Shown: in pieces, positions 4,590 through 39,119 of the stretch | Numbering within the stretch: the first letter of the stretch is position 1 | Layout: the number at the start of each line of letters is the position of its first letter | From: Shigella phage ESh7 | DNA length: 39,724 bases | Reading direction: 5' to 3' (one strand) | Sequence record: ON528720 | Notes under the pieces: generated by a model | What the model saw: the letters and a program-made list of their open reading frames with translations, nothing else | What the model was told of the DNA's origin: nothing | Database searches by the model: none | Made by a program: the position numbers and the translations under genes

Positions 4590-5045
4590 ATGGCTAAAGT
4601 TCAATTCAAACCGAGAGCAACCACTGAGGCAATCTTCGTGCACTGCTCTGCGACTAAACCAAGTCAGAACGTAGGCGTTCGTGAGATTCGCCAGTGGCAT
4701 AAAGAGCAAGGTTGGCTCGATTGCGGATATCACTTCATCATCAAGCGTGATGGCACTGTGGAAGCAGGTCGTGATGAACTGGCTGTAGGTTCCCACGCTA
4801 AGGGCTACAATCACAACTCTATTGGTGTCTGCCTTGTAGGGGGTATCGACGATAAAGGTAAGTTTGACGCTAACTTTACTCCAGCCCAAATGCAATCTCT
4901 TCGCTCACTGCTGGTCACACTTCTGGCTAAGTACGAAGGGTCTGTCCTACGTGCTCATCACGATGTTGCACCTAAAGCCTGCCCATCCTTCGACTTGAAG
5001 CGCTGGTGGGAGAAGAGCGAACTGGTTACATCTGACCGAGGGTGA
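4590..5045 (+). CDS. 3.5: N-acetylmuramoyl-L-alanine amidase (T7 lysozyme, RNAP inhibitor)
   Basis: 151 aa, MAKVQFKPRATTEAIFVHCSATKPSQN... matches T7 gp3.5 pattern. Confidence 0.9.
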   Translation: MAKVQFKPRATTEAIFVHCSATKPSQNVGVREIRQWHKEQGWLDCGYHFIIKRDGTVEAGRDELAVGSHAKGYNHNSIGVCLVGGIDDKGKFDANFTPAQMQSLRSLLVTLLAKYEGSVLRAHHDVAPKACPSFDLKRWWEKSELVTSDRG

Positions 5046-10543: not shown

Positions 10544-10722
10544 TTATACCTAAGAGTGACACCGTAACTATGACTCGTGATGCTTGTAATGATGTTAGTG
10601 CATCCATTGAGAAGCTGGAGAAAGACCTAGAGTTACTGAATGCTCTCCGAGCGTGTGGTGTGGATAATTGGGATGGCTACTCTGATGCAATCGAGATGGT
10701 TTACGGGGAGGAAGACCTATGA
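10540..10722 (+). CDS. 5.9: gene 5.9 homolog, small acidic protein (T7 gp5.9 inhibits RecBCD)
   Basis: MIIPKSDTVTMTRDACNDVSASIEKLEKDLELLNAL...; acidic; ATGA overlap with 5.7 stop; position before gene 6. Confidence 0.45.
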   Translation: MIIPKSDTVTMTRDACNDVSASIEKLEKDLELLNALRACGVDNWDGYSDAIEMVYGEEDL

Positions 10723-11630
10723 GTTTGATTACCCTCAAAGACTTCGCTGAGATGCGCGAAGGAAAACCGATGGAGAATGGCGTGCTGGTCATGGATGGTG
10801 ACTGGCTTGTGTATCAGTCGATGGCTGCTGCCGAAGTTGAGACGGATTGGGGAGACGACATTTGGACTCTGGAGTGTGACCACGCTAAGGCTCGTAGCAT
10901 TCTTGATTCTGCAATCGAATCATACCGAACCCGCAAGAAGGCGTGGAGAGACGCTATGGTAGTTCTGGCGTTTACCGATGATGTTAACTGGCGTAAGGTG
11001 CTGGTCGATGAGACCTATAAGGAGAACCGCAGGGCGACCCGTAAGCCTGTGGGATACCGTGACTTCCTGTCGAAGCTGTGGGAGCGCGATGAGTTCATTC
11101 ACATCAAAGAGGACATGCTGGAAGGTGATGACGTTATGGGCATCATTGGGTCTGGTCACGAGGTCTTCGGCTTCAAGAAGGCTGTGTTGGTCTCCTGCGA
11201 CAAGGACTTCAAGACTATCCCGGACGTTGACTTCCTGTGGTGTACCACTGGTAACATCTTGACGCAGACCAAAGAGACCGCTGATTGGTGGCATCTCTTC
11301 CAGACCATCAAGGGTGATATGACTGATGGCTACTCCGGGATTCCCGGCTGGGGCGATACGGCAGAAGGTTTCCTGAATGACCCGTTCATTGTGGAGCCTG
11401 TAGAGTCCGTGTTGAAGTCTGGTAAGAACAAGGGGCAGATAGTAACCAAGTGGGTGAAGCGTGCTCCTGATGCGACTGAGACGCTGTGGGACTGCATTAA
11501 ATCCATTGGTGCCAAAGCTGGGATGACCGAGCAGGAAATAATCAAGCAAGGCCAGATGGCTCGCATTCTTCGCTTCGAGGAATACAATTACATTGACAAG
11601 GAGATTTACTTATGGACGCCGCGAAGCTGA
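10719..11630 (+). CDS. 6: 5'-3' exonuclease
   Basis: 303 aa; position and size as T7 gp6 (300 aa). Confidence 0.9.
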
Positions 11631-23651: not shown

Positions 23652-26600
23652 ATGAGCTACGATAAGAACAAACCTAGCGAGTTCGATGGGTTATTTCAAA
23701 AAGCGGCAGACAAACATGGGGTCTCCTATGACCTGCTTCGTAAATTAGCATTCAACGAGTCCAGTTTCAATCCAAAGGCCAAATCGCCAACTGGCCCGAA
23801 GGGTCTCATGCAGTTCACCAAAGGTACAGCCACTGCGCTTGGCCTCAAGGTTACTGACGCTGATGATGATGACCGTTACAACCCTGAGTTGGCTGTGGAT
23901 GCAGCCGCTCGTCACCTGAGTGACCTCATTCGGAAGTACGATGGGGATGAACTCAAAGCCGCCTTGGCGTATAATCAGGGCGAGGGACGCAACGGTGCTC
24001 CGCAGATACAGGCTTATGATAAAGGCGATTGGGCCTCAATATCTGAGGAAGGTCGTAACTACATGCGTAACCTGATGGATGTAGCCAATAGCCCACGTAA
24101 GGGAGACTTGGAGGCGTTCGGTGGTATCACCCCAAAGGCTAAGGGTATTCCATCTGAGGAAGCCTTTGCGGGAATCGGGAAGAAGCAGACGGTAGGCACT
24201 GACCTGCCGGAGTCAACTGGATTCAAAGTGGAGGGTAAAGAGCAGCAAGCACCTAACGTGCCTTATGCTAAGGACTTTTGGGAAAAGACTGGAACAACAC
24301 TGGACGAGTTTAATTCTCGTTCAACCTTCTTCGGAATCGGAGATGCCACAAGTGCAGAACTTCACAACTCCGTATTGGGTGTGGCTTTTCGTGCCGCTCG
24401 TAGTGATGACGGTTTTGATTTATTCAAGGACACCATTACTCCGACTCGCTGGAACAGCCATACGTGGACTCCAGAAGAGTTAGAGCGTATCCGTAAGGAA
24501 GTGAAGAACCCATCGTACATCAACGTAGTCACTGGAGGCTCTCCTGAGAATCTGGACGCCCTCATTAAGATGGCGAATGACAACTACGAGATGGACGCGC
24601 GGTCTGCAGATGCTGGTGTTGGTGCCAAACTTACTGCTGGTATCGTCGGTGCTGGTGTAGACCCGCTGAGTTACGTGCCGCTAGTAGGCGTAGCCGGGAA
24701 GGGTCTCAAGGTGGTTAACAAGGCTTTCATTGTTGGTACTCAAAGTGCTGGCCTCGCTGTTGCCTCTGAGGGTATCCGTACATCAATCGCTGGTGGAGAA
24801 GCCCACTATGCTGATGCTGCTTTAGGCGGTCTGATGTTCGGTGCTGGTATGAGTGCAATCAGTGACGCTATCGCTGCTGGTATTCGTCGTTCCCGTGGGA
24901 CTGAGGTTGTTAATGACTTCGCTCCTATGGCACACCGATTGGAAGCCCGTGAGACCGCTCTGAACTCTGGTGGTGAAGACCTGACCCGTATGCCGAGCGA
25001 GAACCGTGTGTTCGACCGTGAGCACGCTGGCGTTGAGTATTCACCTCTGGAGACCGAGCCGGGTGCCGTTGTGTTACCTCAAGGTCAAATCCTGAGCGAC
25101 ACCAACCCGTTGAACCCTCAGACTCTTAGCGAGTTCGAGGCGGTCAACCCTGAGCGTGCCGCTCGTGGTATCTCTTTGGGCGGCTTCACTGAGATTGGCT
25201 TGAAGACTCTACGCTCTGAGAACCCGACTGTTCGCTCCATTGCGAGTGACCTTGTGCGTTCTCCAACAGGGATGGAATCAGGCTCTAATGGTAAGTTCGG
25301 TGCGACTGCTTCTGACATTAAGGAGCGGCTCCACGCGAACAATCAGCGCACCTACAATCAGCTTTATGATGCTGTGCGTACTGCAATGAAAGACCCCGAG
25401 TTCTCCACGGGTGGTGCCACAATGAGCCGTAAGGAAATCCGACAGGAAATCTACAAGCGTGCAGCCTTGGCGATTGAGCGACCTGAGCTTCAAGCAAACC
25501 TGACAAAGGGTGAGCGGAACGTGATGAACATACTCAAGCAGCACTTTGACCTCAAACGTGAAATCATGGAGAACCCGTCAATCTTCGGCAACACCAAGGC
25601 GGTCAGTATCTTCCCCGGCTCACGCCACAAGGGAACCTACGTGCCAAACGTGTACGACCGCGCTATCAAGATTGAGATGGTTAAACGTTACGGTAATGAT
25701 GGCTTGCAGCGAGCAATCGCGGAGTCATGGTTGACGTCTTATCGTGCTCGTCCAGAAGTCAAGGCGAGGGTCGATGAGTACCTGATGGAACTTAACGGTC
25801 TCAAATCCGTGCAGGAAGTTACGCCTGAGATGGTGCAGAAGCACGCGATGGATAAGGCGTATGGTATTTCACACACTGACCAGTTCTCTGCCTCCTCTGT
25901 CATTGATGATAACATTGAGGGTCTGGGGGGTATCGAGAACAACAACTTCTTGGAAGCCCGTAACATGTTCGACAGTGACATGGCGGTGACTCTTCCTGAC
26001 GGTAACACGTTCTCTGTGAATGACCTGCGTACCTATGACATGGCCGAAATTCTGCCTGCATACGACCGACGAGTAGATGGCGATGTTGCAATCATGGGCG
26101 GTTCCGGTAAGACTACCAAAGACCTGAAAGATGAAATCATGGCGCTGGATAAGCAGTCAGAGGGTAACGGCACACTGAAAGGTGAAGTGGAAGCTCTCAA
26201 GGACACCGTGAAGATTCTTACTGGTCGTGCTCGTAGGAACCCGGAAGGCGCTTGGGGTACAGCCCTGCGCTCCGTAAATGACCTCACGTTCTTTGCTAAG
26301 AACGCCTATATGGGCGCACAGAACGTTACTGAAATCGCTGGTATGCTGGCGAAGGGTAACGTCTCTGCGATAACTCATGGCATCCCTATGATTAACGATT
26401 GGGTCAACCGTGGTAAACCGCTTCGTGCCTCTGAGATTAGGGAGATACACGGGATGGTGTTCGGTAAGGAACTAGACCAACTAATCCGTCCGGGACGTGA
26501 AGACCACGTGCGCCGACTCCGGGAGTCTACGGACACCAGCGCTGCGGTTGCCAATGTGGTCGGTACGATTCGTTTCGGTACTCAAGAGTTGGCTGCACGC

Positions 26601-27614
26601 TCTCCTTGGACAATGCTCCTAAATGGAACATCAAACTACATTCTTGATGCTGCCCGTCAGGGTGTGCTTGGGGATGTGGCTGGAGCGGCCCTTGCTGGGA
26701 AAGCCTCTAAGTTCGGTAAGGCAAACTACCTTAAGTCTGCCTCTATCAGCCCTGAGCAGTGGAATGGAATCAAGCAGTTGTTCAGAGACCATGCGACTCG
26801 TGGAGAAGACGGTAAGTTCACAATTCGTGACAAACAGGCTTTCGCTAACGACCCACGTTCAATGGATTTGTGGCGACTTGCTGACAAGGTAGCTGATGAG
26901 ACTATACTGCGCCCTCACAAGGTTTCCTCACAGGACTCCAAAGCGTTCGGTGCAGGGGTGAAGATGGTGATGCAATTTAAGAACTTCGTCATCAAGTCCC
27001 TGAACTCCCGGTTTGTCCGTAGCTTCTACGAGGCAACGAAGAACAACCGAGCGTTAGACCAAGCGTTGACTCACATCATCTCTTTGGGTCTAGCTGGTGG
27101 TTACTACGTTGCGCAGGCGCACCTTAAGGCCGCAAGCCTACAGGAGCACAAACGTAAGGAGTACCTCAAGAACGCCCTTGACCCTAAGATGATTGCTCAT
27201 GCATCAATCTCTCGTAGTTCACACTTAGGCTCACCATTGAGTATCTACGACATGTTCGCTGGGATGGCTGGTAGTGATACCTATAAGTACACCCGCTCTA
27301 CGGTGCTCCCTAAAGAGTCCGAGAAGCGTGACCCTAACAAGGCAGTGACAGGTAGACAGGTGGCTTCAACTATCGCAGGTGCAGTTGGTGAGCAGGTTCC
27401 GGGTTTAGGTTTTGTGGGTTCTGTGGGCGCAACAGCTATTAACGCCGCTTCCCTGCTGTCTTCTCCAAACAAGGCTACCGCTCTGGAGTTCCGTACAGGA
27501 CTCTTCAACACCTCTCGTGAGTTGATTCCTAATGACCCGCTATCGCAGCAACTCATTATGAAAATCTACGAGGCCAACGGTATCCGCATAAAGGAGACGC
27601 CGAAGAAACAATAA
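23652..27614 (+). CDS. 16: internal virion protein D with N-terminal lytic transglycosylase domain
   Basis: 1320 aa; N-terminal ...PKGLMQFTKGTA...ALAYNQGEG resembles SLT domain; synteny. Confidence 0.9.
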   Translation: MSYDKNKPSEFDGLFQKAADKHGVSYDLLRKLAFNESSFNPKAKSPTGPKGLMQFTKGTATALGLKVTDADDDDRYNPELAVDAAARHLSDLIRKYDGDELKAALAYNQGEGRNGAPQIQAYDKGDWASISEEGRNYMRNLMDVANSPRKGDLEAFGGITPKAKGIPSEEAFAGIGKKQTVGTDLPESTGFKVEGKEQQAPNVPYAKDFWEKTGTTLDEFNSRSTFFGIGDATSAELHNSVLGVAFRAARSDDGFDLFKDTITPTRWNSHTWTPEELERIRKEVKNPSYINVVTGGSPENLDALIKMANDNYEMDARSADAGVGAKLTAGIVGAGVDPLSYVPLVGVAGKGLKVVNKAFIVGTQSAGLAVASEGIRTSIAGGEAHYADAALGGLMFGAGMSAISDAIAAGIRRSRGTEVVNDFAPMAHRLEARETALNSGGEDLTRMPSENRVFDREHAGVEYSPLETEPGAVVLPQGQILSDTNPLNPQTLSEFEAVNPERAARGISLGGFTEIGLKTLRSENPTVRSIASDLVRSPTGMESGSNGKFGATASDIKERLHANNQRTYNQLYDAVRTAMKDPEFSTGGATMSRKEIRQEIYKRAALAIERPELQANLTKGERNVMNILKQHFDLKREIMENPSIFGNTKAVSIFPGSRHKGTYVPNVYDRAIKIEMVKRYGNDGLQRAIAESWLTSYRARPEVKARVDEYLMELNGLKSVQEVTPEMVQKHAMDKAYGISHTDQFSASSVIDDNIEGLGGIENNNFLEARNMFDSDMAVTLPDGNTFSVNDLRTYDMAEILPAYDRRVDGDVAIMGGSGKTTKDLKDEIMALDKQSEGNGTLKGEVEALKDTVKILTGRARRNPEGAWGTALRSVNDLTFFAKNAYMGAQNVTEIAGMLAKGNVSAITHGIPMINDWVNRGKPLRASEIREIHGMVFGKELDQLIRPGREDHVRRLRESTDTSAAVANVVGTIRFGTQELAARSPWTMLLNGTSNYILDAARQGVLGDVAGAALAGKASKFGKANYLKSASISPEQWNGIKQLFRDHATRGEDGKFTIRDKQAFANDPRSMDLWRLADKVADETILRPHKVSSQDSKAFGAGVKMVMQFKNFVIKSLNSRFVRSFYEATKNNRALDQALTHIISLGLAGGYYVAQAHLKAASLQEHKRKEYLKNALDPKMIAHASISRSSHLGSPLSIYDMFAGMAGSDTYKYTRSTVLPKESEKRDPNKAVTGRQVASTIAGAVGEQVPGLGFVGSVGATAINAASLLSSPNKATALEFRTGLFNTSRELIPNDPLSQQLIMKIYEANGIRIKETPKKQ

Positions 27615-27632
27615 ACCCTCACTAAAGGGAGA
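27610..27632 (+). promoter_or_regulatory. T3 RNA polymerase promoter
   Basis: AATAAACCCTCACTAAAGGGAGAG; gene 16 stop inside it. Confidence 0.8.
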
Positions 27633-27685
27633 GAGGTCACATTCTGGCCTCTTCTCTCCTAATGCTAATTTATAAAGGAGGTCAC

Positions 27686-29635
27686 ATGGCTACAAATATT
27701 AAGACCGTGATGACTTACCCGCTGGATGGTTCAACTACGGACTTTAATATTCCGTTCGAGTATCTGGCTCGTAAGTTCGTCCGAGTGACCCTTATCGGTG
27801 TTGACCGAAAGGAACTCATCTTGAATAAAGACTATCGTTTTGCTACTAAGACCACAATCTCCACAACGAGAGCATTGGGGCCAGCGGACGGTTATAACAT
27901 GATTGAAATCCGTCGATTCACCTCCGCTACAGATAGGCTGGTTGACTTCACCGATGGTTCAATCCTTCGGGCATATGATTTGAACATATCTCAGGTTCAG
28001 ACCCTTCACGTTGCTGAGGAAGCCCGCGACCTTACCGCAGATACAATTGGCGTCAACAATGGTGGGAACTTGGATGCTCGTGGTCGTCGTATCGTGAACG
28101 TTGCGGATGCACAAGATGTAGGTGACGCAATCAACCTAGGTCAAATCCAACGATGGAACGACTCTGCGTTGAACTCTGCTAATCGAGCGAAACAGGAAGC
28201 TGACCGTGCAACTGCGCGTGCAAACGATGCGAACAACTCTGCGAACGCCTCAGCGTCCTCCGCTAGTGCCTCTTCTGTCTCCGCCGAATTAGCAAAACAG
28301 TGGGCCGTTAAGGAAACCGCTGTGGAGCCTAATCTCGAGTCATCACGAACCTACGCGCTTCACTCCATGTCATACCGGAATGAGGCTAAAGGCTCTGCCG
28401 ACCGTGCCGCTGTTTCAGAGACCAACGCTAAGGCCTCCGAAGGGAGCGCTACTAACTCGGCTGCTGCCGCTAAGGTCTCAGAGACCAACGCTAAGGCCTC
28501 CGAGGAGAGAGCAATCACTGAGGCGAGTAAGCTTGGAAGCATGAATGGGTTTGCTGGTGCAATCGACAGGGTTGAAGGTGTAAACGTGTGGTTCAAAGGG
28601 ACACTCGTGACTACCGAGAACATCACTGGAGGTTGGCTTATTTCCACAGGCCACGCTAATATTGGTAAAGGGCTTGCGGTTCAGGAGAATGGTACTTTCG
28701 GTATCGACTTAACAGTCCAGCGCGACATTTATGGAAATCGTAACATGACAGTCGCTGGTAACTCTTGGTTGCAGGGAGGCATTGTCCAGTCGGCAGCCTC
28801 CACCGTGTATAACCAGCTATATCGCCTTCACCTGAGCAGTACACCAATGCATGTAGGGAACCGTCAGGGTGTCCACATTGGATGGAACGAGTCTAACGGT
28901 AAAGGTGAAGCTGTCTTTTTGAATAACCAAGGCCGTGGTGATGGTGGGTTCGTGTTCCGTACAGTTAACGTCGCCAACTCAGTTGAGAAGGGTCGTGTCG
29001 AGTTTACTCAGGACGGTAACATCTATGCGAATCACCTACAGGTTCGTTCCGGTGCCAGAATTGATGGGAACAACAACATCGTAGGTCAGTACCTCCACGC
29101 AGGAATGGGCAACGCGATACTAAACCCGGATGGGAACCTTAGCGGCGGTGTGTGGAACAGCGTTGGTGGACACCTTTGGGGAATGCTCAACGACAACTAC
29201 AGGTTCGCCAAACCTCCTGCTGGGGTTCGCCTGTACACAGGCCGTGGCTCGGACTACATTGAGGGTAACGTTGATGGTAAGGCCGTTGGGTTCCGATGGT
29301 TCCTGTCAGACAGAAGGCTTAAAGAGAACATCAAGGTTGTTCGCTCTGCCGATGATATGCTCAATATTATCCGCTCGTATATTCCGGTTTCGTATAAATA
29401 TAAGGACTCTGAGTACGTTGACAACCGTGGGAATACTGTGACTGTCGCTGGTAAGAACTCTCGTGCTGGTTTCATTACTCAGGACTTGATTCGAATCTGG
29501 CCGGAGGCGGTTGATATAATGAGCGACGGTATGCAGTCTCCAGACCCGAACCAGATCATTGGCGGATTGATGCTACTTGTTAAGAACCTAGATGCTCGCG
29601 TTCAGGAGCTTGAATCTAAACTTATGACAGACTAA
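27686..29635 (+). CDS. 17: tail fibre protein with C-terminal intramolecular chaperone (peptidase S74-like) domain
   Basis: 649 aa from ATG 27686 (RBS AAAGGAGGT); N-terminus MATNIKTVMTYPLDGSTTDFNIPFEYLARKFV... like T7 gp17; C-terminus SDRRLKENI...VSYKYK...GFITQDL...PEAV...LVKNLDARVQELESKL. Confidence 0.9.
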   Translation: MATNIKTVMTYPLDGSTTDFNIPFEYLARKFVRVTLIGVDRKELILNKDYRFATKTTISTTRALGPADGYNMIEIRRFTSATDRLVDFTDGSILRAYDLNISQVQTLHVAEEARDLTADTIGVNNGGNLDARGRRIVNVADAQDVGDAINLGQIQRWNDSALNSANRAKQEADRATARANDANNSANASASSASASSVSAELAKQWAVKETAVEPNLESSRTYALHSMSYRNEAKGSADRAAVSETNAKASEGSATNSAAAAKVSETNAKASEERAITEASKLGSMNGFAGAIDRVEGVNVWFKGTLVTTENITGGWLISTGHANIGKGLAVQENGTFGIDLTVQRDIYGNRNMTVAGNSWLQGGIVQSAASTVYNQLYRLHLSSTPMHVGNRQGVHIGWNESNGKGEAVFLNNQGRGDGGFVFRTVNVANSVEKGRVEFTQDGNIYANHLQVRSGARIDGNNNIVGQYLHAGMGNAILNPDGNLSGGVWNSVGGHLWGMLNDNYRFAKPPAGVRLYTGRGSDYIEGNVDGKAVGFRWFLSDRRLKENIKVVRSADDMLNIIRSYIPVSYKYKDSEYVDNRGNTVTVAGKNSRAGFITQDLIRIWPEAVDIMSDGMQSPDPNQIIGGLMLLVKNLDARVQELESKLMTD

Positions 29636-29646
29636 GGAGGTGTTAA

Positions 29647-29850
29647 ATGTTATCCTTCGACTTCAACAATGAGGTCGTTAAGGCTGCTCCTATTGTTGGC
29701 ACAGGGGTCGCTGATGGGGCGGCCCGACTCTTTTGGGGACTATCGTTAAACGAGTGGTTCTACGTTGCAGCTATCGCCTACACAGTGGTTCAGATTGGTG
29801 CCAAGGTAGTCGATAAGATGATTGACTGGAAACGTGCAAACAAGGAGTAA
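29647..29850 (+). CDS. 17.5: holin (class II), gene 17.5 homolog
   Basis: 67 aa with hydrophobic segment FYVAAIAYTVVQIGA; same size as T7 gp17.5. Confidence 0.7.
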   Translation: MLSFDFNNEVVKAAPIVGTGVADGAARLFWGLSLNEWFYVAAIAYTVVQIGAKVVDKMIDWKRANKE

Positions 29851-29853
29851 TCT

Positions 29854-30120
29854 ATGAGCGACAAGACTTTAATCAAGCTGCTGGAGATGTTGGACACGGA
29901 GATGGCACAGCGTATGCTTGCTGACCTCCAGAGCGAGGAACGCCGAACGCCGCAGCTTTACAACGCAATCGGCAAACTGTTAGACCGCCATAAGTTCCAA
30001 ATCAGTAAGCTGACCCCGGATGAGAACATCCTTGGCGGTCTCGCGGCTGGTCTGGAAGACTACAACAAAGTGGTCGGCCCTAATGGTCTGACTGACGATG
30101 AGACCATCACGCTACAGTAA
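29854..30120 (+). CDS. 18: terminase small subunit
   Basis: 88 aa; position before gene 19; T7 gp18 is 89 aa. Confidence 0.8.
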   Translation: MSDKTLIKLLEMLDTEMAQRMLADLQSEERRTPQLYNAIGKLLDRHKFQISKLTPDENILGGLAAGLEDYNKVVGPNGLTDDETITLQ

Positions 30121-30165
30121 GTGACATACTCAAGGTTCTCCACGCGGGGAGCCTTTATGGATGTT
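30121..30165 (+). promoter_or_regulatory. RNase III-type processing hairpin upstream of gene 18.5
   Basis: CATACTCAAGGTTCTCCACGCGGGGAGCCTTTATGGATG shares the conserved motif. Confidence 0.4.
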
Positions 30166-30210
30166 ATTTGGTGCATCTACGTGAAATCTAAAAAACTGAT
30201 GGGAGGTGTT

Positions 30211-30663
30211 ATGCTAAAACTTTTACGCAGCGCACTCCCTTGGGTACTCGCCGGGACACTCTTTATGGGTGGCTGGCACTTAGGGTCAACCCATGAGAGA
30301 GCAAACTGGAAGGAGGTAATCCAAAATGAATACATTGCGAAAACAAAGGCAACCGCAGCAACTCAGGCAGAGGTCAGTAGGGTATCCCGTGAGTACCAAG
30401 AAGAGATTGCAGCCATTGAAGGCAGCACTGATAGGATGCTTAATGACCTGCGTAGTAATAATAAGCGGCTGTCAGTCCGCATCAAAACCCTTACCGGACT
30501 ACCAGAAGATAACGGTAGATGCGAGTTTAATGGTCGAGCCGAACTACACGAGTCAGATGCTAAGCGTATTATCGGAATAACCCAAGCTGCCGATGCTCAC
30601 GTAAGAGCGCTCCAGCGTACTATTAAGGAGATGCAGAATGAGCGACACCCAAGCAAACCGTAA
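30211..30663 (+). CDS. 18.5: i-spanin (Rz-like)
   Basis: 150 aa from ATG 30211 (RBS GGGAGGTG); [25 protein letters not shown] matches T7 gp18.5 N-terminus pattern. Confidence 0.8.
30326..30580 (+). CDS. 18.7: o-spanin lipoprotein (Rz1-like), nested in +1 frame of 18.5
   Basis: 84 aa; lipobox-like VVIISGC; C-terminus [17 protein letters not shown] parallels T7 gp18.7. Confidence 0.7.
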   Translation: MNTLRKQRQPQQLRQRSVGYPVSTKKRLQPLKAALIGCLMTCVVIISGCQSASKPLPDYQKITVDASLMVEPNYTSQMLSVLSE

Positions 30664-32401
30664 TGCGCTAATCATTGCGCAGCTTAAGGGTGACTTCGTG
30701 GCCTTCCTGTTCGTATTGTGGAAGGCTTTGGCTCTCCCGCCGCCGACTAAGTGTCAGATTGATATGGCCCGGTGTCTGGCTAACGGAGACAACAAGAAGT
30801 TTATCCTACAGGCTTTCCGTGGTATCGGTAAGTCATTCATCACCTGTGCGTTCGTTGTGTGGACGTTATGGCGTGACCCTCAGTTGAAGATACTAATTGT
30901 CTCTGCATCCAAAGAACGTGCGGACGCTAACTCCATCTTCATCAAGAACATCATTGACCTGCTGCCCTTCTTGGCTGAGCTAAAGCCTCGCCCCGGTCAG
31001 CGTGACTCTGTGATTAGTTTCGATGTTGGCCCTGCCAAGCCTGACCACTCTCCGTCTGTGAAGTCGGTGGGTATCACTGGTCAGTTGACTGGTAGTCGTG
31101 CTGATATCATCATAGCGGATGACGTTGAGATTCCGTCTAACTCCGCAACTCAAGGTGCCCGTGAGAAGCTGTGGACTCTGGTGCAGGAATTTGCCGCACT
31201 ACTGAAACCGCTGCCGACTTCTCGCGTTATCTACCTTGGTACGCCTCAAACCGAAATGACCTTGTACAAGGAACTCGAAGATAACCGTGGGTACACCACA
31301 ATCATCTGGCCTGCGCTCTATCCGCGTAGCCGTGAGGAAGACCTGTACTATGGCGACCGTCTGGCCCCGATGCTCCGCGAAGAGTTCAACGATGGGTTCG
31401 AGATGCTCCAAGGTCAACCAACTGACCCCGTGCGCTTCGATATGGAAGACCTGCGTGAGCGTGAGTTGGAATACGGTAAGGCTGGCTTCACTTTGCAGTT
31501 CATGCTCAACCCGAACCTGAGTGATGCCGAGAAGTACCCCTTACGCCTCCGTGACGCTATCGTGTGCGGTCTGGACTTCGAGAAAGCCCCAATGCATTAC
31601 CAGTGGCTTCCGAACCGTCAGAATCGCAATGAAGAGCTTCCTAACGTGGGACTTAAGGGTGATGATATTCATAGCTATCATTCGTGCAGCCAGAACACTG
31701 GACAGTATCAGCAACGCATCCTCGTGATTGACCCTAGTGGTCGCGGTAAGGATGAGACTGGTTACGCAGTGTTGTTCACCCTGAATGGCTACATCTATCT
31801 GATGGAAGCTGGCGGGTTCCGCGATGGTTATTCTGATAAGACCCTTGAGTCCCTCGCTAAGAAAGCGAAGCAGTGGAAGGTTCAGACAGTGGTCTTCGAG
31901 AGTAACTTCGGGGATGGTATGTTTGGTAAGGTATTCAGCCCGGTTCTCCTGAAACACCATGCAGCGCAGCTTGAAGAGATTCGTGCTCGTGGTATGAAGG
32001 AACTACGAATTTGTGATACGCTGGAACCTGTACTCTCTACGCACCGCCTTGTGATTCGTGACGAGGTGATTCGTGAGGACTACCAGACTGCCCGTGACGC
32101 TGATGGCAAGCATGATGTTCGCTATTCGCTGTTCTACCAGTTGACCCGCATGGCTCGTGAGAAGGGCGCTGTGGCCCATGATGACCGACTTGATGCGTTA
32201 GCATTGGGTGTGGAGTTCTTACGCTCTACGATGGAACTGGACGCTGTGAAGGTGGAGGCTGAGGTGCTTGAGGCGTTCTTAGAGGAACACATGGAGCACC
32301 CAATCCATTCGGCTGGTCATGTAGTTACCTCTATGGTTGACGGTATAGAACTCTATTGGGAGTATGACGATGTGAATAGCAACAGGTTCATTGACTGGTA
32401 G
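30638..32401 (+). CDS. 19: terminase large subunit
   Basis: 587 aa; synteny; ATPase/nuclease-size protein at the end of the late region. Confidence 0.95.
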
Positions 32402-32422
32402 TTATGCATATTGAGCGCATAA
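32402..32422 (+). promoter_or_regulatory. short inverted repeat hairpin after gene 19
   Basis: TTATGC-ATATTGAGC-GCATAA; 6-bp arms. Confidence 0.25.
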
Positions 32423-32480
32423 GGATTCAATTAGACCACGGACGGTCACTTTAAGAAATTCCTTAAGAATCAACGAGTTT

Positions 32481-32504
32481 GAATTAACCCTCACTAAAGG
32501 GAGA
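32481..32504 (+). promoter_or_regulatory. T3 RNA polymerase promoter (right-end promoter)
   Basis: GAATTAACCCTCACTAAAGGGAGA. Confidence 0.8.
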
Positions 32505-32645
32505 GAGGGGACTTAAAGCTACTATATAGGTTAGTCATTCAGGTTATGCAATGACCCTTTATGCACTTTAAGTCTGCCTCTGTGATTGGTGATATTATCA
32601 TTGTATAATCACCCTACCTTAGAGCAACTGAAAGGAGGTGGCTCA

Positions 32646-32795
32646 ATGTTACGCTTGATGATTGCCCTGCTGCGTCATAGAGTCACTTGGCGATTTCTTC
32701 TGGTACTTACTGCTACCCTTGGGTACGCAGGTCTTAATGGCCACCTCGGTCAACTGGAAGTGGCCTTTTGCTCTATACTCTCTTGTGGGGATTAA
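32646..32795 (+). CDS. 19.5: gene 19.5 homolog
   Basis: MLRLMIALLRHRVTWRFLLVLTATLGYAGLNGHLGQLEVAFCSILSCGD parallels T7 gp19.5 (49 aa); RBS GAAAGGAGGTG. Confidence 0.65.
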   Translation: MLRLMIALLRHRVTWRFLLVLTATLGYAGLNGHLGQLEVAFCSILSCGD

Positions 32796-32869
32796 ATTAT
32801 TGTTGATGAACGACAAGCGGCTCTGAGGGATTCGTAGGTATAGTTTCACTACACCAACTCATCCCTGTA

Positions 32870-33350
32870 GAGTCAACCCTAAAGGTTATACCTAAAGATG
32901 CCCTGTAGTTCGTAATGGTCTTACAGGGTCTTTAAGTGTCTCCTAGCTATCACTTCGGGATGCGCCTATGGTATCACCTATGGTGTGGCCCTACCTAAAG
33001 TGGTTGCCTAAAGAGGCCCTTTAAGAATTTACCACAAAAATCTGAATGGGTATCTCACAGTTCAAGAACCCAAAGTACCCCCCATAGCCCTCCTAAAGCC
33101 ACCTAAAGCCAGCCCTACCCCTAGGGTTTAACCTTCGGTTAACCTTGGGTATCTCCTCAAGTGGTCTATAGGATAGCCTAAAGTGTTGCCTAAAGTCAAT
33201 ACCTAAAGTGGTGGATGGCTTAAGGAGGACTTAAAGAGTGTCCTAGTGTACCAGTTCGATAGTACATCTCTATGTGTCCCTATCTGTTAGCCTCCTAAAG
33301 TAAACCTAAAGCCACTACCTAAAGACCAGACCTAAAGCTATCACCTAAAG
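32870..33350 (+). repeat. array of about 14 CCTAAAG heptamer repeats with irregular spacing (genome-end short repeats)
   Basis: CCTAAAG counted at about 32877, 32891, 32992, 33006, 33093, 33102, 33177, 33188, 33201, 33292, 33303, 33316, 33328, 33341; T7 ends carry the same ACCTAAAG arrays. Confidence 0.7.
33053..33281 (+). repeat. putative terminal repeat (single copy at concatemer-type junction)
   Basis: Begins TCTCACAG like the T7 left end and ends ...GTGTCCCT like the end of the T7 terminal repeat; about 229 bp; boundaries inferred by analogy. Confidence 0.4.
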
Positions 33351-33440
33351 CGGCGCTATCTTAAAGACAACCAGACCGATAAGACCCATTGTTAACCCGT
33401 AGTGATGCCCTGTGGTTCTCTATGGTGTCTATCGTCAATT

Positions 33441-33463
33441 CAATTACCCTCACTAAAGGGAAT
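33441..33463 (+). promoter_or_regulatory. T3 RNA polymerase promoter (left-end promoter)
   Basis: CAATTACCCTCACTAAAGGGAAT. Confidence 0.65.
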
Positions 33464-33517
33464 AAGGGATACTTAAAGAGGGAATTTAAAGATTTAATAA
33501 AAGATTTAAATTAATGG

Positions 33518-33547
33518 TTGACTTTAAGTAACCCTTAAGGCTATTAT
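33518..33547 (+). promoter_or_regulatory. host sigma70 early promoter (A1-like)
   Basis: TTGACT, about 17-18 nt spacer, TATTAT. Confidence 0.5.
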
Positions 33548-33646
33548 TCATCTCGTCAACGGGACAACGGCCTTAAAGCCACTCCCTGAGATACCGGAGT
33601 CAACCGGATAAGTAGACAGCCTGATAAGTCATACGAAAAACAGGCA

Positions 33647-33675
33647 TTGACAACATGAAGTAAACGCAGTAAGAT
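33647..33675 (+). promoter_or_regulatory. host sigma70 early promoter (A2-like)
   Basis: TTGACA, 17-nt spacer, TAAGAT; TTGACAACATGAAGTAA as in T7 A2/A3. Confidence 0.7.
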
Positions 33676-33756
33676 GTACCACATAGCGTTAACCGCCGAT
33701 TCGGTGTCTTCTAGGTGACTTAAGCGCACCACGGCACATAAAGCGAAACAAAATGG

Positions 33757-33785
33757 TTGACAACATGAAGTAAACGCAGTAAGAT
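33757..33785 (+). promoter_or_regulatory. host sigma70 early promoter (A3-like)
   Basis: Identical 36-bp copy of the A2 element TTGACAACATGAAGTAAACGCAGTAAGATGTACCAC. Confidence 0.7.
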
Positions 33786-33910
33786 GTACCACGAAATGAC
33801 GGAACAGTGAGGCGGGACACTGAAAGCCGCTAGGGTCTAACGAAACCAGACCGACACGCTCTTTAACAATCTGGATAATAGCTCTTGAGTGTACCGATGT
33901 ATAAGCGAAT

Positions 33911-33959
33911 AACTCAAGGTCGCACTGAAAGCGTGGCCTTTATGATATTCACTTAACAC
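33911..33959 (+). promoter_or_regulatory. RNase III-type processing hairpin (R0.3-like)
   Basis: AACTCAAGGTCGCACTGAAAGCGTGGCCTTTATGATATTCACTTAACAC. Confidence 0.55.
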
Positions 33960-33982
33960 AAACTAACATGAGGTAACACCAA

Positions 33983-36464: not shown

Positions 36465-39119
36465 ATGAACATCATCGAAACTATCGAAAAGAATGACTTC
36501 TCCGAAATCGAACTGGCTGCTATCCCGTTCAACACACTGGCAGACCACTACGGCAGCGCATTGGCTCGTGAACAACTGGCTTTAGAGCACGAGTCTTATG
36601 AGCTAGGCGAGCGCCGCTTCCTCAAGATGCTTGAGCGTCAAGCGAAAGCTGGTGAGATTGCAGACAACGCAGCCGCTAAGCCGTTACTCGCTACGCTTCT
36701 CCCTAAGTTAACCGCACGCATCGTTGAGTGGCTCGAAGAGTACGCCTCTAAGAAAGGCCGCAAGCCTGTAGCCTATGCACCACTCCAATCACTCAAGCCG
36801 GAGGCGTCCGCGTTTATCACGCTCAAGGTCATCCTTGCGTCACTGACCAGCACGAACATGACAACCATTCAGGCCGCTGCTGGTATGCTAGGGAAGGCCA
36901 TTGAGGATGAGGCACGTTTCGGGCGCATCCGTGACCTCGAAGCGAAGCACTTCAAGAAGCACGTTGAGGAACAGCTTAACAAGCGCCACGGGCAAGTCTA
37001 CAAGAAAGCCTTTATGCAGGTGGTCGAGGCCGATATGATTGGTCGAGGTCTGCTTGGTGGCGAGGCGTGGTCTAGCTGGGATAAAGAAACCACGATGCAC
37101 GTAGGGATTCGCCTGATTGAAATGCTGATTGAGTCCACGGGTCTGGTGGAATTACAGCGCCACAACGCAGGTAACGCAGGCTCTGACCATGAGGCACTAC
37201 AACTGGCCCAAGAGTACGTGGACGTCTTAGCGAAGCGTGCAGGCGCTCTGGCGGGTATCTCTCCGATGTTCCAACCGTGTGTCGTACCGCCGAAACCTTG
37301 GGTAGCAATCACAGGTGGCGGCTATTGGGCGAACGGTCGCAGACCTTTGGCGCTCATTCGCACTCACTCTAAGAAGGGACTGATGCGCTATGATGATGTT
37401 TACATGCCAGAAGTTTACAAGGCGGTCAACATCGCACAGAACACCGCATGGAAAATCAACAAGAAAGTCCTCTCGGTTGTCAACGAGATTGTGAACTGGA
37501 AGAACTGCCCGGTCGCAGACATTCCATCGCTGGAGCGCCAAGAGTTACCACCTAAGCCGGACGACATTGACACCAACGAGGCAGCACTCAGGGAGTGGAA
37601 GAAAGCCGCCGCTGGTGTCTACCGCTTGGACAAGGCACGAGTGTCTCGCCGTATCAGCTTAGAGTTCATGCTGGAGCAGGCCAACAAGTTTGCAAACAAG
37701 AAAGCAATCTGGTTCCCTTACAACATGGACTGGCGCGGTCGTGTGTACGCTGTGCCTATGTTCAACCCGCAAGGCAACGACATGACGAAAGGTCTGCTGA
37801 CCCTCGCTAAAGGAAAGCCAATCGGTGAGGAAGGTTTCTACTGGCTGAAAATCCACGGCGCGAACTGTGCGGGTGTCGATAAGGTTCCTTTCCCTGAGCG
37901 CATCGCGTTCATTGAGAAGCACGTAGACGACATTCTGGCTTGCGCTAAAGACCCAATCAATAACACTTGGTGGGCCGAGCAGGATTCACCTTTCTGTTTC
38001 CTAGCGTTTTGCTTCGAGTATGCAGGCGTTGCGCACCACGGTCTGAGCTACAATTGCTCTCTGCCGCTGGCGTTCGACGGGTCTTGCTCTGGTATCCAGC
38101 ACTTCTCCGCTATGCTCCGCGATGAGGTAGGCGGTCGTGCGGTTAACCTGCTGCCAAGCGAAACCGTGCAGGACATTTACGGCATCGTTGCACAGAAAGT
38201 AAACGAGATTCTCAAACAGGATGCAATCAACGGCACACCTAACGAGATGATTACCGTGACCGACAATGACACCGGGGAAATCTCAGAGAAGCTCAAGCTG
38301 GGAACCTCAACGCTGGCGCAACAGTGGCTGGCATATGGTGTAACCCGTAGCGTAACTAAACGTTCGGTCATGACGCTGGCTTACGGTTCCAAGGAGTTCG
38401 GCTTTCGTCAACAGGTACTGGACGACACCATTCAGCCTGCGATTGACAGCGGTAAGGGCTTGATGTTCACCCAACCTAACCAAGCGGCTGGCTACATGGC
38501 TAAGCTGATTTGGGACGCGGTGAGCGTGACCGTAGTCGCAGCGGTCGAGGCGATGAACTGGCTCAAGTCTGCCGCTAAGCTGCTGGCTGCTGAGGTCAAG
38601 GACAAGAAGACCAAGGAGATTCTGCGTCACCGTTGCGCGGTTCACTGGACTACGCCGGACGGCTTCCCGGTCTGGCAGGAATACCGCAAGCCACTCCAGA
38701 AGCGTCTCGATATGATTTTCTTAGGGCAATTCCGTCTGCAACCGACGATTAATACCCTCAAGGATTCAGGCATTGACGCACACAAGCAGGAGTCTGGCAT
38801 CGCTCCTAACTTTGTTCACTCACAGGACGGTAGCCACCTCCGCATGACAGTAGTTTATGCTCACGAGAAGTATGGCATTGAGTCCTTTGCGCTCATCCAT
38901 GACAGCTTCGGGACTATCCCGGCAGACGCTGGTAAGCTGTTCAAAGCTGTACGTGAGACGATGGTTATCACCTACGAGAACAACGATGTGCTGGCAGACT
39001 TCTATGACCAGTTTGCAGACCAGCTACACGAGACCCAACTGGACAAGATGCCTCCGCTTCCGAAGAAAGGGAACCTGAACCTCCAAGACATTCTCAAGTC
39101 TGACTTTGCCTTTGCATAA
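36465..39119 (+). CDS. 1: single-subunit DNA-directed RNA polymerase
   Basis: 884 aa (T3 RNAP length as I recall it); motifs PMFQPCVVPPKPW, DGSCSGIQHFSAMLRDE, HDSFGT; C-terminal FAFA. Confidence 0.97.
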   Translation: MNIIETIEKNDFSEIELAAIPFNTLADHYGSALAREQLALEHESYELGERRFLKMLERQAKAGEIADNAAAKPLLATLLPKLTARIVEWLEEYASKKGRKPVAYAPLQSLKPEASAFITLKVILASLTSTNMTTIQAAAGMLGKAIEDEARFGRIRDLEAKHFKKHVEEQLNKRHGQVYKKAFMQVVEADMIGRGLLGGEAWSSWDKETTMHVGIRLIEMLIESTGLVELQRHNAGNAGSDHEALQLAQEYVDVLAKRAGALAGISPMFQPCVVPPKPWVAITGGGYWANGRRPLALIRTHSKKGLMRYDDVYMPEVYKAVNIAQNTAWKINKKVLSVVNEIVNWKNCPVADIPSLERQELPPKPDDIDTNEAALREWKKAAAGVYRLDKARVSRRISLEFMLEQANKFANKKAIWFPYNMDWRGRVYAVPMFNPQGNDMTKGLLTLAKGKPIGEEGFYWLKIHGANCAGVDKVPFPERIAFIEKHVDDILACAKDPINNTWWAEQDSPFCFLAFCFEYAGVAHHGLSYNCSLPLAFDGSCSGIQHFSAMLRDEVGGRAVNLLPSETVQDIYGIVAQKVNEILKQDAINGTPNEMITVTDNDTGEISEKLKLGTSTLAQQWLAYGVTRSVTKRSVMTLAYGSKEFGFRQQVLDDTIQPAIDSGKGLMFTQPNQAAGYMAKLIWDAVSVTVVAAVEAMNWLKSAAKLLAAEVKDKKTKEILRHRCAVHWTTPDGFPVWQEYRKPLQKRLDMIFLGQFRLQPTINTLKDSGIDAHKQESGIAPNFVHSQDGSHLRMTVVYAHEKYGIESFALIHDSFGTIPADAGKLFKAVRETMVITYENNDVLADFYDQFADQLHETQLDKMPPLPKKGNLNLQDILKSDFAFA

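Follow-up and report, generated by a model that had tools for sequence, protein, structure and literature searches.

An embedded spanin pair in Shigella phage ESh7: an Rz1-like gene conserved within the +1 frame of an Rz-like gene

Genes 18.5 and 18.7 of Shigella phage ESh7 very probably encode an embedded two-component spanin of the kind carried by T3/phiYeO3-12-like podophages. We analyzed a stretch of 39,724 nucleotides (sequence record ON528720; here called the window). It is the complete genome, circularly permuted, of a T3-like podophage (Teetrevirus); over 25 kb, it shares 95-96% identity with Klebsiella phage Patroon and Yersinia phage phiYeO3-12. We found that both products belong to known spanin families, that the geometry is that of an embedded pair, that the lipobox, start signals, and reading frame of the nested gene are conserved among relatives, and that selection acts in both frames.

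Gene 18.5, which encodes the Rz-like i-spanin, is an ATG open reading frame (ORF) of 453 nt on the + strand (30211-30663) that specifies 150 amino acids plus the stop. Gene 18.7, the Rz1-like o-spanin gene, is likewise an ATG ORF on the + strand (30326-30580), with a length of 255 nt and a product of 84 amino acids plus the stop. The coordinates that the initial annotation gave for both genes were exact to the base. The inner start is offset from the outer start by 115 nt, and as 115 mod 3 = 1, gene 18.7 occupies the +1 frame of 18.5 in the convention of the spanin literature. Because its stop falls 83 nt before the outer stop (outer stop codon included), the nested gene is fully embedded, as had been claimed.

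The outer product matched phrog_1327, "Rz-like spanin" (2.8e-62), and is 55% identical to T7 gp18.5, in agreement with its earlier description as Rz-like. Against PF03245 (Phage_lysis, the lambda Rz family), it scored 22.2 bits (E 1.8e-4), below the gathering threshold of 25.4; because of this score, we file it as a T7 gp18.5-type Rz-like protein (phrog_1327) and not as a formal member of PF03245. It is 100% identical to the proteins of phiYe-F10 and Enterobacter phage E-3 and 99.3% identical to that of Klebsiella phage Patroon. The Shine-Dalgarno sequence of the gene, GGGAGGTG (30201-30208, +), ends 2 nt before the ATG at 30211. Four upstream in-frame starts (GTG 30121, ATG 30157, GTG 30181, and ATG 30199) were rejected: they are without a ribosome-binding site, lie in or beside the R18.5 stem-loop described below, and disagree with the alignment of homologues, in which T7 gp18.5 and others begin at Met 30211. 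One deposited record places the start of gene 18.5 at ATG 30199.

The N-terminal hydrophobic segment of the i-spanin (30229-30285, +) is a candidate type II signal-anchor for the inner membrane. The longest stretch free of charges covers residues 7-22, with K3 and R6 on its N-terminal side. The hydrophobicity of the segment is moderate (Kyte-Doolittle 19-residue mean 1.28), and its role as the inner-membrane anchor is therefore putative. A single-sequence AF2 model (mean pLDDT 63), used for secondary structure only, predicts helices at residues 27-47, 52-95, and 114-145 and a low-confidence loop at residues 96-113, which carries the sole Cys, C104 (30520-30522). With moderate confidence, the model suggests a layout of anchor, helix 1 (residues ~27-95), flexible linker, and helix 2 (residues ~114-145).

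The nested product matched the curated family PF17531 (O_Spanin_T7) with 76.1 bits (cut-off 25; E 2.1e-21), its residues 25-83 aligning to profile positions 1-58 of 59. It also matched phrog_4306 (1.3e-40) over residues 1-84 and is 50% identical to T7 gp18.7; the suggestion that the inner gene encodes an Rz1-like lipoprotein thus agrees with a family match above the cut-off. NCBIfam returned no model for the i-spanin, the o-spanin, or the holin. A PDB sequence search with both spanin proteins gave no meaningful match, and so no solved relative of either.

A lipobox, I46-S47-G48-C49, is encoded at 30461-30472 (+), with Cys49 the predicted lipidated residue 1 of the mature protein. The ISGC noticed in the initial annotation conforms to the consensus [LVI][ASTVI][GAS]C (PMC6139136). 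Upstream of Cys49 are a basic n-region (K25, K26, R27, and K32) and then an uncharged h-region of 16 residues, A33-G48. The lipoprotein-signal check that had been proposed gave a divided answer when done by rule: the PROSITE-type pattern is present, yet counted from the ATG the Cys is residue 49, and the classical range is 15-35. The pre-sequence, at 48 amino acids, is indeed unusually long and includes a strongly basic N-terminal extension of 24 amino acids, which falls outside the coverage of the PF17531 model; the net charge of residues 1-32 is +9. T7 gp18.7 has the same 48-residue pre-sequence, so its length is a feature of the family and not special to this phage. The predicted mature o-spanin (30470-30577, +) has 36 amino acids including the lipid-carrying Cys, no further Cys, and a conserved C-terminal motif. 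Its DNA also encodes the i-spanin from the last part of helix 1 through the linker into the first part of helix 2 and, given the AF2 placement of the loop at residues 96-113, would be shared mainly with the linker.

In the Lol pathway, lipoproteins whose +2 residue is other than Asp are sorted to the outer membrane. The residue that follows Cys49 is Gln50, and since this is not Asp, the o-spanin is expected in the outer membrane.

To follow the nested gene among relatives, we assembled 94 loci from annotated phages and IMG/VR, which reduced to 81 distinct outer-gene sequences in 10 lineages (<90% nucleotide identity between lineages). A query with the single protein recovered only five identical loci, whereas an alignment-based query recovered 80. 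The sample reaches to phages of Dickeya and Pseudomonas, with outer proteins that are only 30-38% identical to the ESh7 i-spanin. All 81 distinct relatives have an intact embedded +1 ORF with a lipobox, which reads ISGC in 70, VSGC in six, VSAC in three, and TSGC and MSGC in one each. The +2 residue is A, Q, V, E, G, or T and in no case Asp. The mature o-spanin is 35-45 residues long throughout (81 of 81), with no further Cys and with the C-terminal motif kept.

The start signals of 18.7 are conserved as well. The inner ATG overlies the Asn-Glu of a conserved NEY motif in the outer protein. The outer Asn39 is written AAT in 78 of 78 sequences, and the inner ATG is therefore kept; AAT accounts for 24% of the Asn codons in this phage (33% before G). 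The Shine-Dalgarno sequence of the o-spanin gene, AAGGAGGT (30310-30317, +), overlies i-spanin codons K34-E35-V36. A core of at least GGAGG precedes the conserved start in 80 of the 81 relatives. Where this core overlies (K/Q)-E-V, the Glu codon is GAG and the codon before it ends in G in nine of 10 lineages, compared to a genome-wide use of 61-72%; the exception is Pseudomonas phage FRS, which is poorly aligned there. Both the ATG and the Shine-Dalgarno sequence of 18.7 are thus kept through the use, in the outer gene, of synonymous codons that are not the preferred ones.

The initial annotation had also proposed that dual coding constrains both genes, and this constraint proved measurable. 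Using one representative of each of the 10 lineages, we calculated entropy at each codon position of the outer frame. Upstream of the nested ORF, where the outer gene is not overlapped, positions 1, 2, and 3 had entropies of 1.18, 1.00, and 1.39; in the non-overlapped codons downstream, the values were 0.70, 0.55, and 1.50. These Rz codons show the usual pattern, in which the third position varies most. Over the core of the o-spanin signal peptide, all three positions are quiet (0.65, 0.40, and 0.68). Over the mature o-spanin, the pattern flips (1.00, 0.73, and 0.67): the outer third position varies least and the outer first position, which is the wobble position of the inner frame, varies most. 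Mean H3-H1 was -0.34 in this part compared to +0.42 in the non-overlapped Rz codons (one-sided p 2.4e-6). Selection acts on the second position of the inner frame. Dominance also shifts along the overlap, from the outer frame over the N-terminal extension to both frames over the signal-peptide core and to the inner frame where the outer protein is only a linker.

These data bear on whether 18.7 is a gene at all. An inner ORF could be an unexpressed chance frame, with the outer gene alone functional, and ORF length by itself is weak evidence against this, as it is only mildly unusual. When we kept the Rz protein fixed and recoded it 20,000 times with phage codon usage, a +1 ATG ORF of at least 84 codons arose in 0.34% of the recodings; per lineage, 84 codons stay open with a probability of 0.2-12% when the outer protein is fixed. 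Elsewhere among the long genes of the window, which add up to 26.8 kb, three more ORFs of 84 amino acids or longer are embedded in an alternative frame, and for this reason, we rejected ORF length as sufficient evidence. In addition, many deposited relatives have only the outer gene annotated. What confirms 18.7 as a real gene is homology, conservation in 81 of 81 relatives, and the substitution pattern: the match to a curated Pfam family (E 2e-21), the retention of lipobox, hydrophobic core, and C-terminal motif down to 30-40% identity of the outer protein, the selection on the inner second position, and the synonymous choices that maintain the ATG and Shine-Dalgarno sequence. The T7 homologue has, moreover, been tested experimentally (PMC6139136). 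As we read the alignments, the conservation data have already refuted the chance frame, to which we give practically no credence. We regard it as highly improbable, too, that the pair is an endopeptidase acting on peptidoglycan-lipoprotein links and not a membrane-fusing bridge. Many database records do call the outer gene "endopeptidase" or "endopeptidase Rz". However, neither protein matches a protease or peptidase family in Pfam, PHROGs, or NCBIfam, the AF2 model of the outer protein predicts an anchor and two long helices and lacks a globular catalytic domain, and published work on spanins ascribes to them membrane fusion and not catalysis (PMC6139136, PMC5295617). The label is a historical carry-over.

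A further possibility concerns where translation of a real lipoprotein gene begins. We consider it distinctly unlikely that initiation is internal, at GTG 30389 (codon 22) or TTG 30407 (Cys-21), and equally doubtful that the product has an ordinary signal peptide of 20-27 residues, with the first ~24 codons an untranslated run-in that is open by chance. From GTG 30389, the Cys would be residue 28, which agrees with the classical lipoprotein rule, whereas from the ATG it does not. The Pfam model spans only residues 25-83, and in the first 24 codons, H3-H1 is 0.36, indistinguishable from the 0.42 of non-overlapped Rz codons (p 0.38), with the inner-frame amino acids varying more than those of the outer frame (1.62 versus 1.32 bits). 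A TTG is present at Cys-21 in 10 of 10 lineages; however, it can also be explained as a conserved o-spanin Leu codon that is forced by a conserved (I/L)-A of the outer protein. GTG 30389 and the TTGs in the window are without an upstream Shine-Dalgarno match, and GTG 30389 lacks conservation: in T7 and several further lineages, there is an ATG at Cys-31 instead. In contrast, AAGGAGGT or AGGAGGT precedes the upstream start in nine of 10 lineages (at least GGAGG, as noted, in 80 of 81 sequences), and all 78 sequences keep the upstream ATG through an Asn codon that is not the preferred one. The 24 codons are open in 10 of 10 lineages, for which the per-lineage chance is 0.23-0.73 and the product ~1e-4 if lineages are independent, and the phrog_4306 alignment spans residues 1-84. 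Because the ATG and Shine-Dalgarno sequence are conserved, the extension is open in all lineages, and the internal starts have no ribosome-binding site, we kept 30326 as the start of 18.7. That the conserved, strongly basic 24-residue extension of T7-family o-spanins, which is followed by a signal peptide of otherwise canonical lipoprotein type, is itself functional seems to us unlikely. If so, it might delay or meter lipoprotein export, link o-spanin translation to i-spanin translation, or permit initiation at two sites and hence two precursor forms. The alternative is that the extension merely reflects where the outer gene could accommodate a ribosome-binding site.

The lysis genes of ESh7 are scattered. 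The tail fibre gene 17 (27662-29635) is followed by gene 17.5 (29647-29850, +), which encodes a class II holin (PF10746 Phage_holin_2_2, 1.4e-33; phrog_920, 2.7e-31), and by the small terminase gene 18 (29854-30120). After a 90-nt spacer (30121-30210) come the spanin genes on the + strand and then gene 19 (30638-32401, +), which encodes the large terminase (587 amino acids). The amidase endolysin is encoded by gene 3.5 (4590-5045, +; PF01510 Amidase_2, 4e-17), which lies 25 kb away from 17.5 and the spanin pair, and the gene order is as in T7 and T3.

All 11 T3-polymerase-type promoters are on the + strand, and the nearest one upstream of the spanin pair (27610-27632) is ahead of gene 17. A scan of 29500-30800 for sigma-70 promoters and intrinsic terminators gave none above shuffle expectation, with no promoter in the spacer between 18 and 18.5. 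A stem-loop at 30118-30170 (+), aligned with annotated stem_loop features in phiYeO3-12 and T3, is the homologue of R18.5, a putative RNase III processing site. The 111-nt stretch that holds it (30105-30215) folds with -32.8 kcal/mol (z -2.5 versus shuffles). An Rfam scan of the whole window gave zero matches, and the stem-loop is therefore without a curated RNA family. Putative processing at R18.5 would create the 5′ end of a spanin/terminase message.

The 3′ end of 18.5 (codons ...NERHPSKP) overlaps the start of gene 19 by 26 nt (30638-30663, +), as had been noted, and the large terminase ORF shares its frame with the nested ORF 18.7. An identical overlap appears in the phiYeO3-12 annotation. 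In T7 and T3, the two genes are instead separated by 21 and 9 nt, and other lineages are variable. The overlap is peculiar to the phiYeO3-12-like lineage. When the whole locus was called a classic embedded arrangement, this was apt for the embedded +1 architecture, which is that of lambda and T7, but the terminase overlap is no part of it.

By analogy with the spanins of lambda and T7, we infer a topology, lipidation, complex formation, and membrane fusion of the following kind. Both spanins would be made late from one message, initiated at the T3-type promoter ahead of gene 17 and probably running through the RNase III site just upstream of 18.5, with each protein translated from its own strong ribosome-binding site. 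The N-terminal segment of the 150-residue i-spanin would sit in the inner membrane and extend two long helices and a Cys-containing linker into the periplasm, where the protein may form a helical, disulfide-linked dimer. The 84-residue o-spanin precursor would be exported, lipidated on Cys49, and cut by signal peptidase II, and its Gln at +2 would direct the 36-residue lipoprotein to the inner leaflet of the outer membrane. Binding between the C-terminal parts of the two proteins would then yield a complex that crosses the periplasm through the peptidoglycan mesh. Once the holin lets the gp3.5 amidase destroy the wall, the complexes would be free to move, collapse, and fuse the inner membrane with the outer, and the last obstacle to release of the virions would be gone.

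The pair is already known and annotated in near-identical published phages, and the initial annotation was right to call it not novel: phiYeO3-12, which is 98% identical locally, had its genes 18.5, 18.7, and 19 annotated already. The value for discovery is correspondingly small: a textbook feature has been annotated correctly in a phage that shares 95-98% identity with published genomes. What is not textbook here is the unusually long pre-sequence, which is family-wide, and the lineage-specific terminase overlap. There is more value for annotation, as many deposited relatives omit 18.7 or carry the endopeptidase label on 18.5. In T7-like genomes, 18.7 can be called from an AAT-G start over the Asn-Glu of the NEY motif, with GGAGGT over Glu-Val and an [IVTM]S[GA]C lipobox 48 codons downstream as further signals. 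The codon-position analysis is also a clean small example of selection partitioned between two overlapping frames.

Among known systems, the closest is that of phiYeO3-12. Over 30100-30700, nucleotide identity is 98%, and ESh7 matches phiYeO3-12 in the lengths of genes 18.5 (453 nt) and 18.7 (255 nt), in their offset of 115 nt, in the 26 nt by which 18.5 overlaps gene 19, and in having the R18.5 stem-loop upstream. The phiYeO3-12 record names 18.7 a "lambda Rz1 homologue" and has carried the 18.5/18.7/19 annotation since deposition. Klebsiella phage Patroon, Enterobacter phages E-2, E-3, and E-4, and Yersinia phages phiYe-F10 and vB_YenP_AP5 are also among the closest relatives. Differences within this group come to a handful of point changes with no structural difference; residue 8 of the o-spanin, for example, is Arg here and Lys in close relatives. 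Patroon was published with an embedded spanin pair (PMC6533387), and it and other near-identical phages are annotated with an i-spanin and an o-spanin.

T7, whose gp18.7 founded PF17531, has the same gene order (17.5 holin, 18, 18.5/18.7, 19), the same 115-nt offset and +1 frame, and an o-spanin with the same 48-residue pre-sequence and ISGC lipobox and no periplasmic Cys, paired with an i-spanin that has one Cys in its linker. However, the T7 i-spanin has 143 residues and ends 21 nt before gene 19, whereas the ESh7 protein has a tail seven residues longer that produces the overlap, and T7 has Ala at +2 where ESh7 has Gln. According to the RefSeq note on T7, gp18.7 interacts with gp18.5. T7 and lambda, both +1, are experimentally tested embedded spanins (Kongari et al. 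2018, PMC6139136). Under laboratory conditions, T7 stays viable when genes 18.5 and 18.7 are removed or disrupted (PMC9825161), and spanin function is therefore conditional, not essential.

Compared to embedded pairs in general, 18.7 is set early: it begins at 0.25 and ends at 0.82 of the i-spanin length, because of its long N-terminal extension, whereas in ~70% of such pairs the o-spanin begins at 0.4-0.5 and ends at 0.9-1.0 (PMC6139136). At least one periplasmic Cys in either subunit, which could serve for a disulfide between molecules, is found in 507 of 528 spanin systems (PMC6139136), and in ESh7, it is C104 of the i-spanin, the mature o-spanin having none. Lambda Rz1 contains 10 Pro and a Cys through which it forms a disulfide-linked dimer (PMC6139136); the mature 18.7 product has three Pro and no Cys. 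Sequence similarity between the ESh7 i-spanin and the lambda Rz family is marginal, at the sub-cut-off PF03245 score given above. The lambda Rz1 pre-sequence is ~19 amino acids long, whereas that of 18.7 has 48. The lysis genes of lambda form one grouped cassette, unlike those of ESh7, where the amidase gene is 25 kb away. The pair nevertheless resembles lambda Rz/Rz1 in plan: an inner-membrane protein with an anchor-helix-linker-helix layout, a small lipoprotein of the outer membrane read from the +1 frame of the inner-membrane protein's gene, and mature lipoprotein DNA that overlies the flexible linker (PMC6139136 for lambda).

The o-spanin (gene 18.7) carries a pre-sequence of 48 residues, in which a basic extension (codons 1-24, 30326-30397) precedes a canonical lipoprotein signal. 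Its start codon and Shine-Dalgarno sequence are kept through the use of non-preferred synonymous codons in the outer gene, the i-spanin gene 18.5. Although this start codon and Shine-Dalgarno sequence are conserved, the extension's own sequence is not. A TTG lies 21 codons upstream of the lipobox cysteine in all 10 lineages, the groups formed by relatives' outer-gene sequences at 90% nucleotide identity. As the chance background for comparison, we used three further +1-frame ATG ORFs, for products of 89-103 residues, nested in long genes: 10978-11262 inside the gene at 10719-11630, 26623-26892 inside the gene at 23652-27614, and 29130-29441 inside the tail fibre gene.

The spacer between gene 18 (small terminase) and gene 18.5 contains a stem-loop (30118-30170) homologous to the putative RNase III site R18.5, which is annotated in phages phiYeO3-12 and T3. 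The region containing it, 30105-30215, has a folding energy of -32.8 kcal/mol, with a z-score of -2.5, and the stem-loop corresponds to no Rfam family.

The window, 1-39724, is an entire Teetrevirus genome in permuted order, with ligase near 379, the large terminase (gene 19) ending at 32401 and RNA polymerase at 36465-39119. The ORF-poor stretch 3' of gene 19 (about 32400-33980) holds the physical ends or concatemer junction. Within it are short repeat arrays of the CCTAAAG type (32875-33350) and two copies of a segment resembling a sigma-70 early promoter (33634-33682 and 33744-33792). At 11 sites the sequence fits the consensus of T3 RNA polymerase promoters with 0-3 mismatches, where none is expected by chance; they lie between 1798 and 39495, all on the + strand, and three are perfect (15318, 19937 and 32482).

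The tail fibre gp17 (27662-29635, 657 residues) joins a T7-type N-terminal domain (PF03906) to a C-terminal Peptidase_S74 intramolecular chaperone domain (residues 549-617). Neither T7 nor T3 gp17 is known to carry a Peptidase_S74 domain. This combination points to a swapped receptor-binding module. A swapped module has likewise been noted in the fibre of Klebsiella phage Patroon (PMC6533387).

The spanin pair at 30211-30663 differs in allele from that of phage T3. The 18.5/18.7 allele of T3 (positions 1139-1582 of the locus taken from NC_003298) is T7-like, with an i-spanin of 147 residues and a gap of 9 nt to gene 19, whereas Yersinia phage phiYeO3-12 has the allele found in the window. T3 has been described as a recombinant of phiYeO3-12-like and T7-like phages, and a T7-like spanin pair in T3, against the phiYeO3-12 allele here, would fit that origin.
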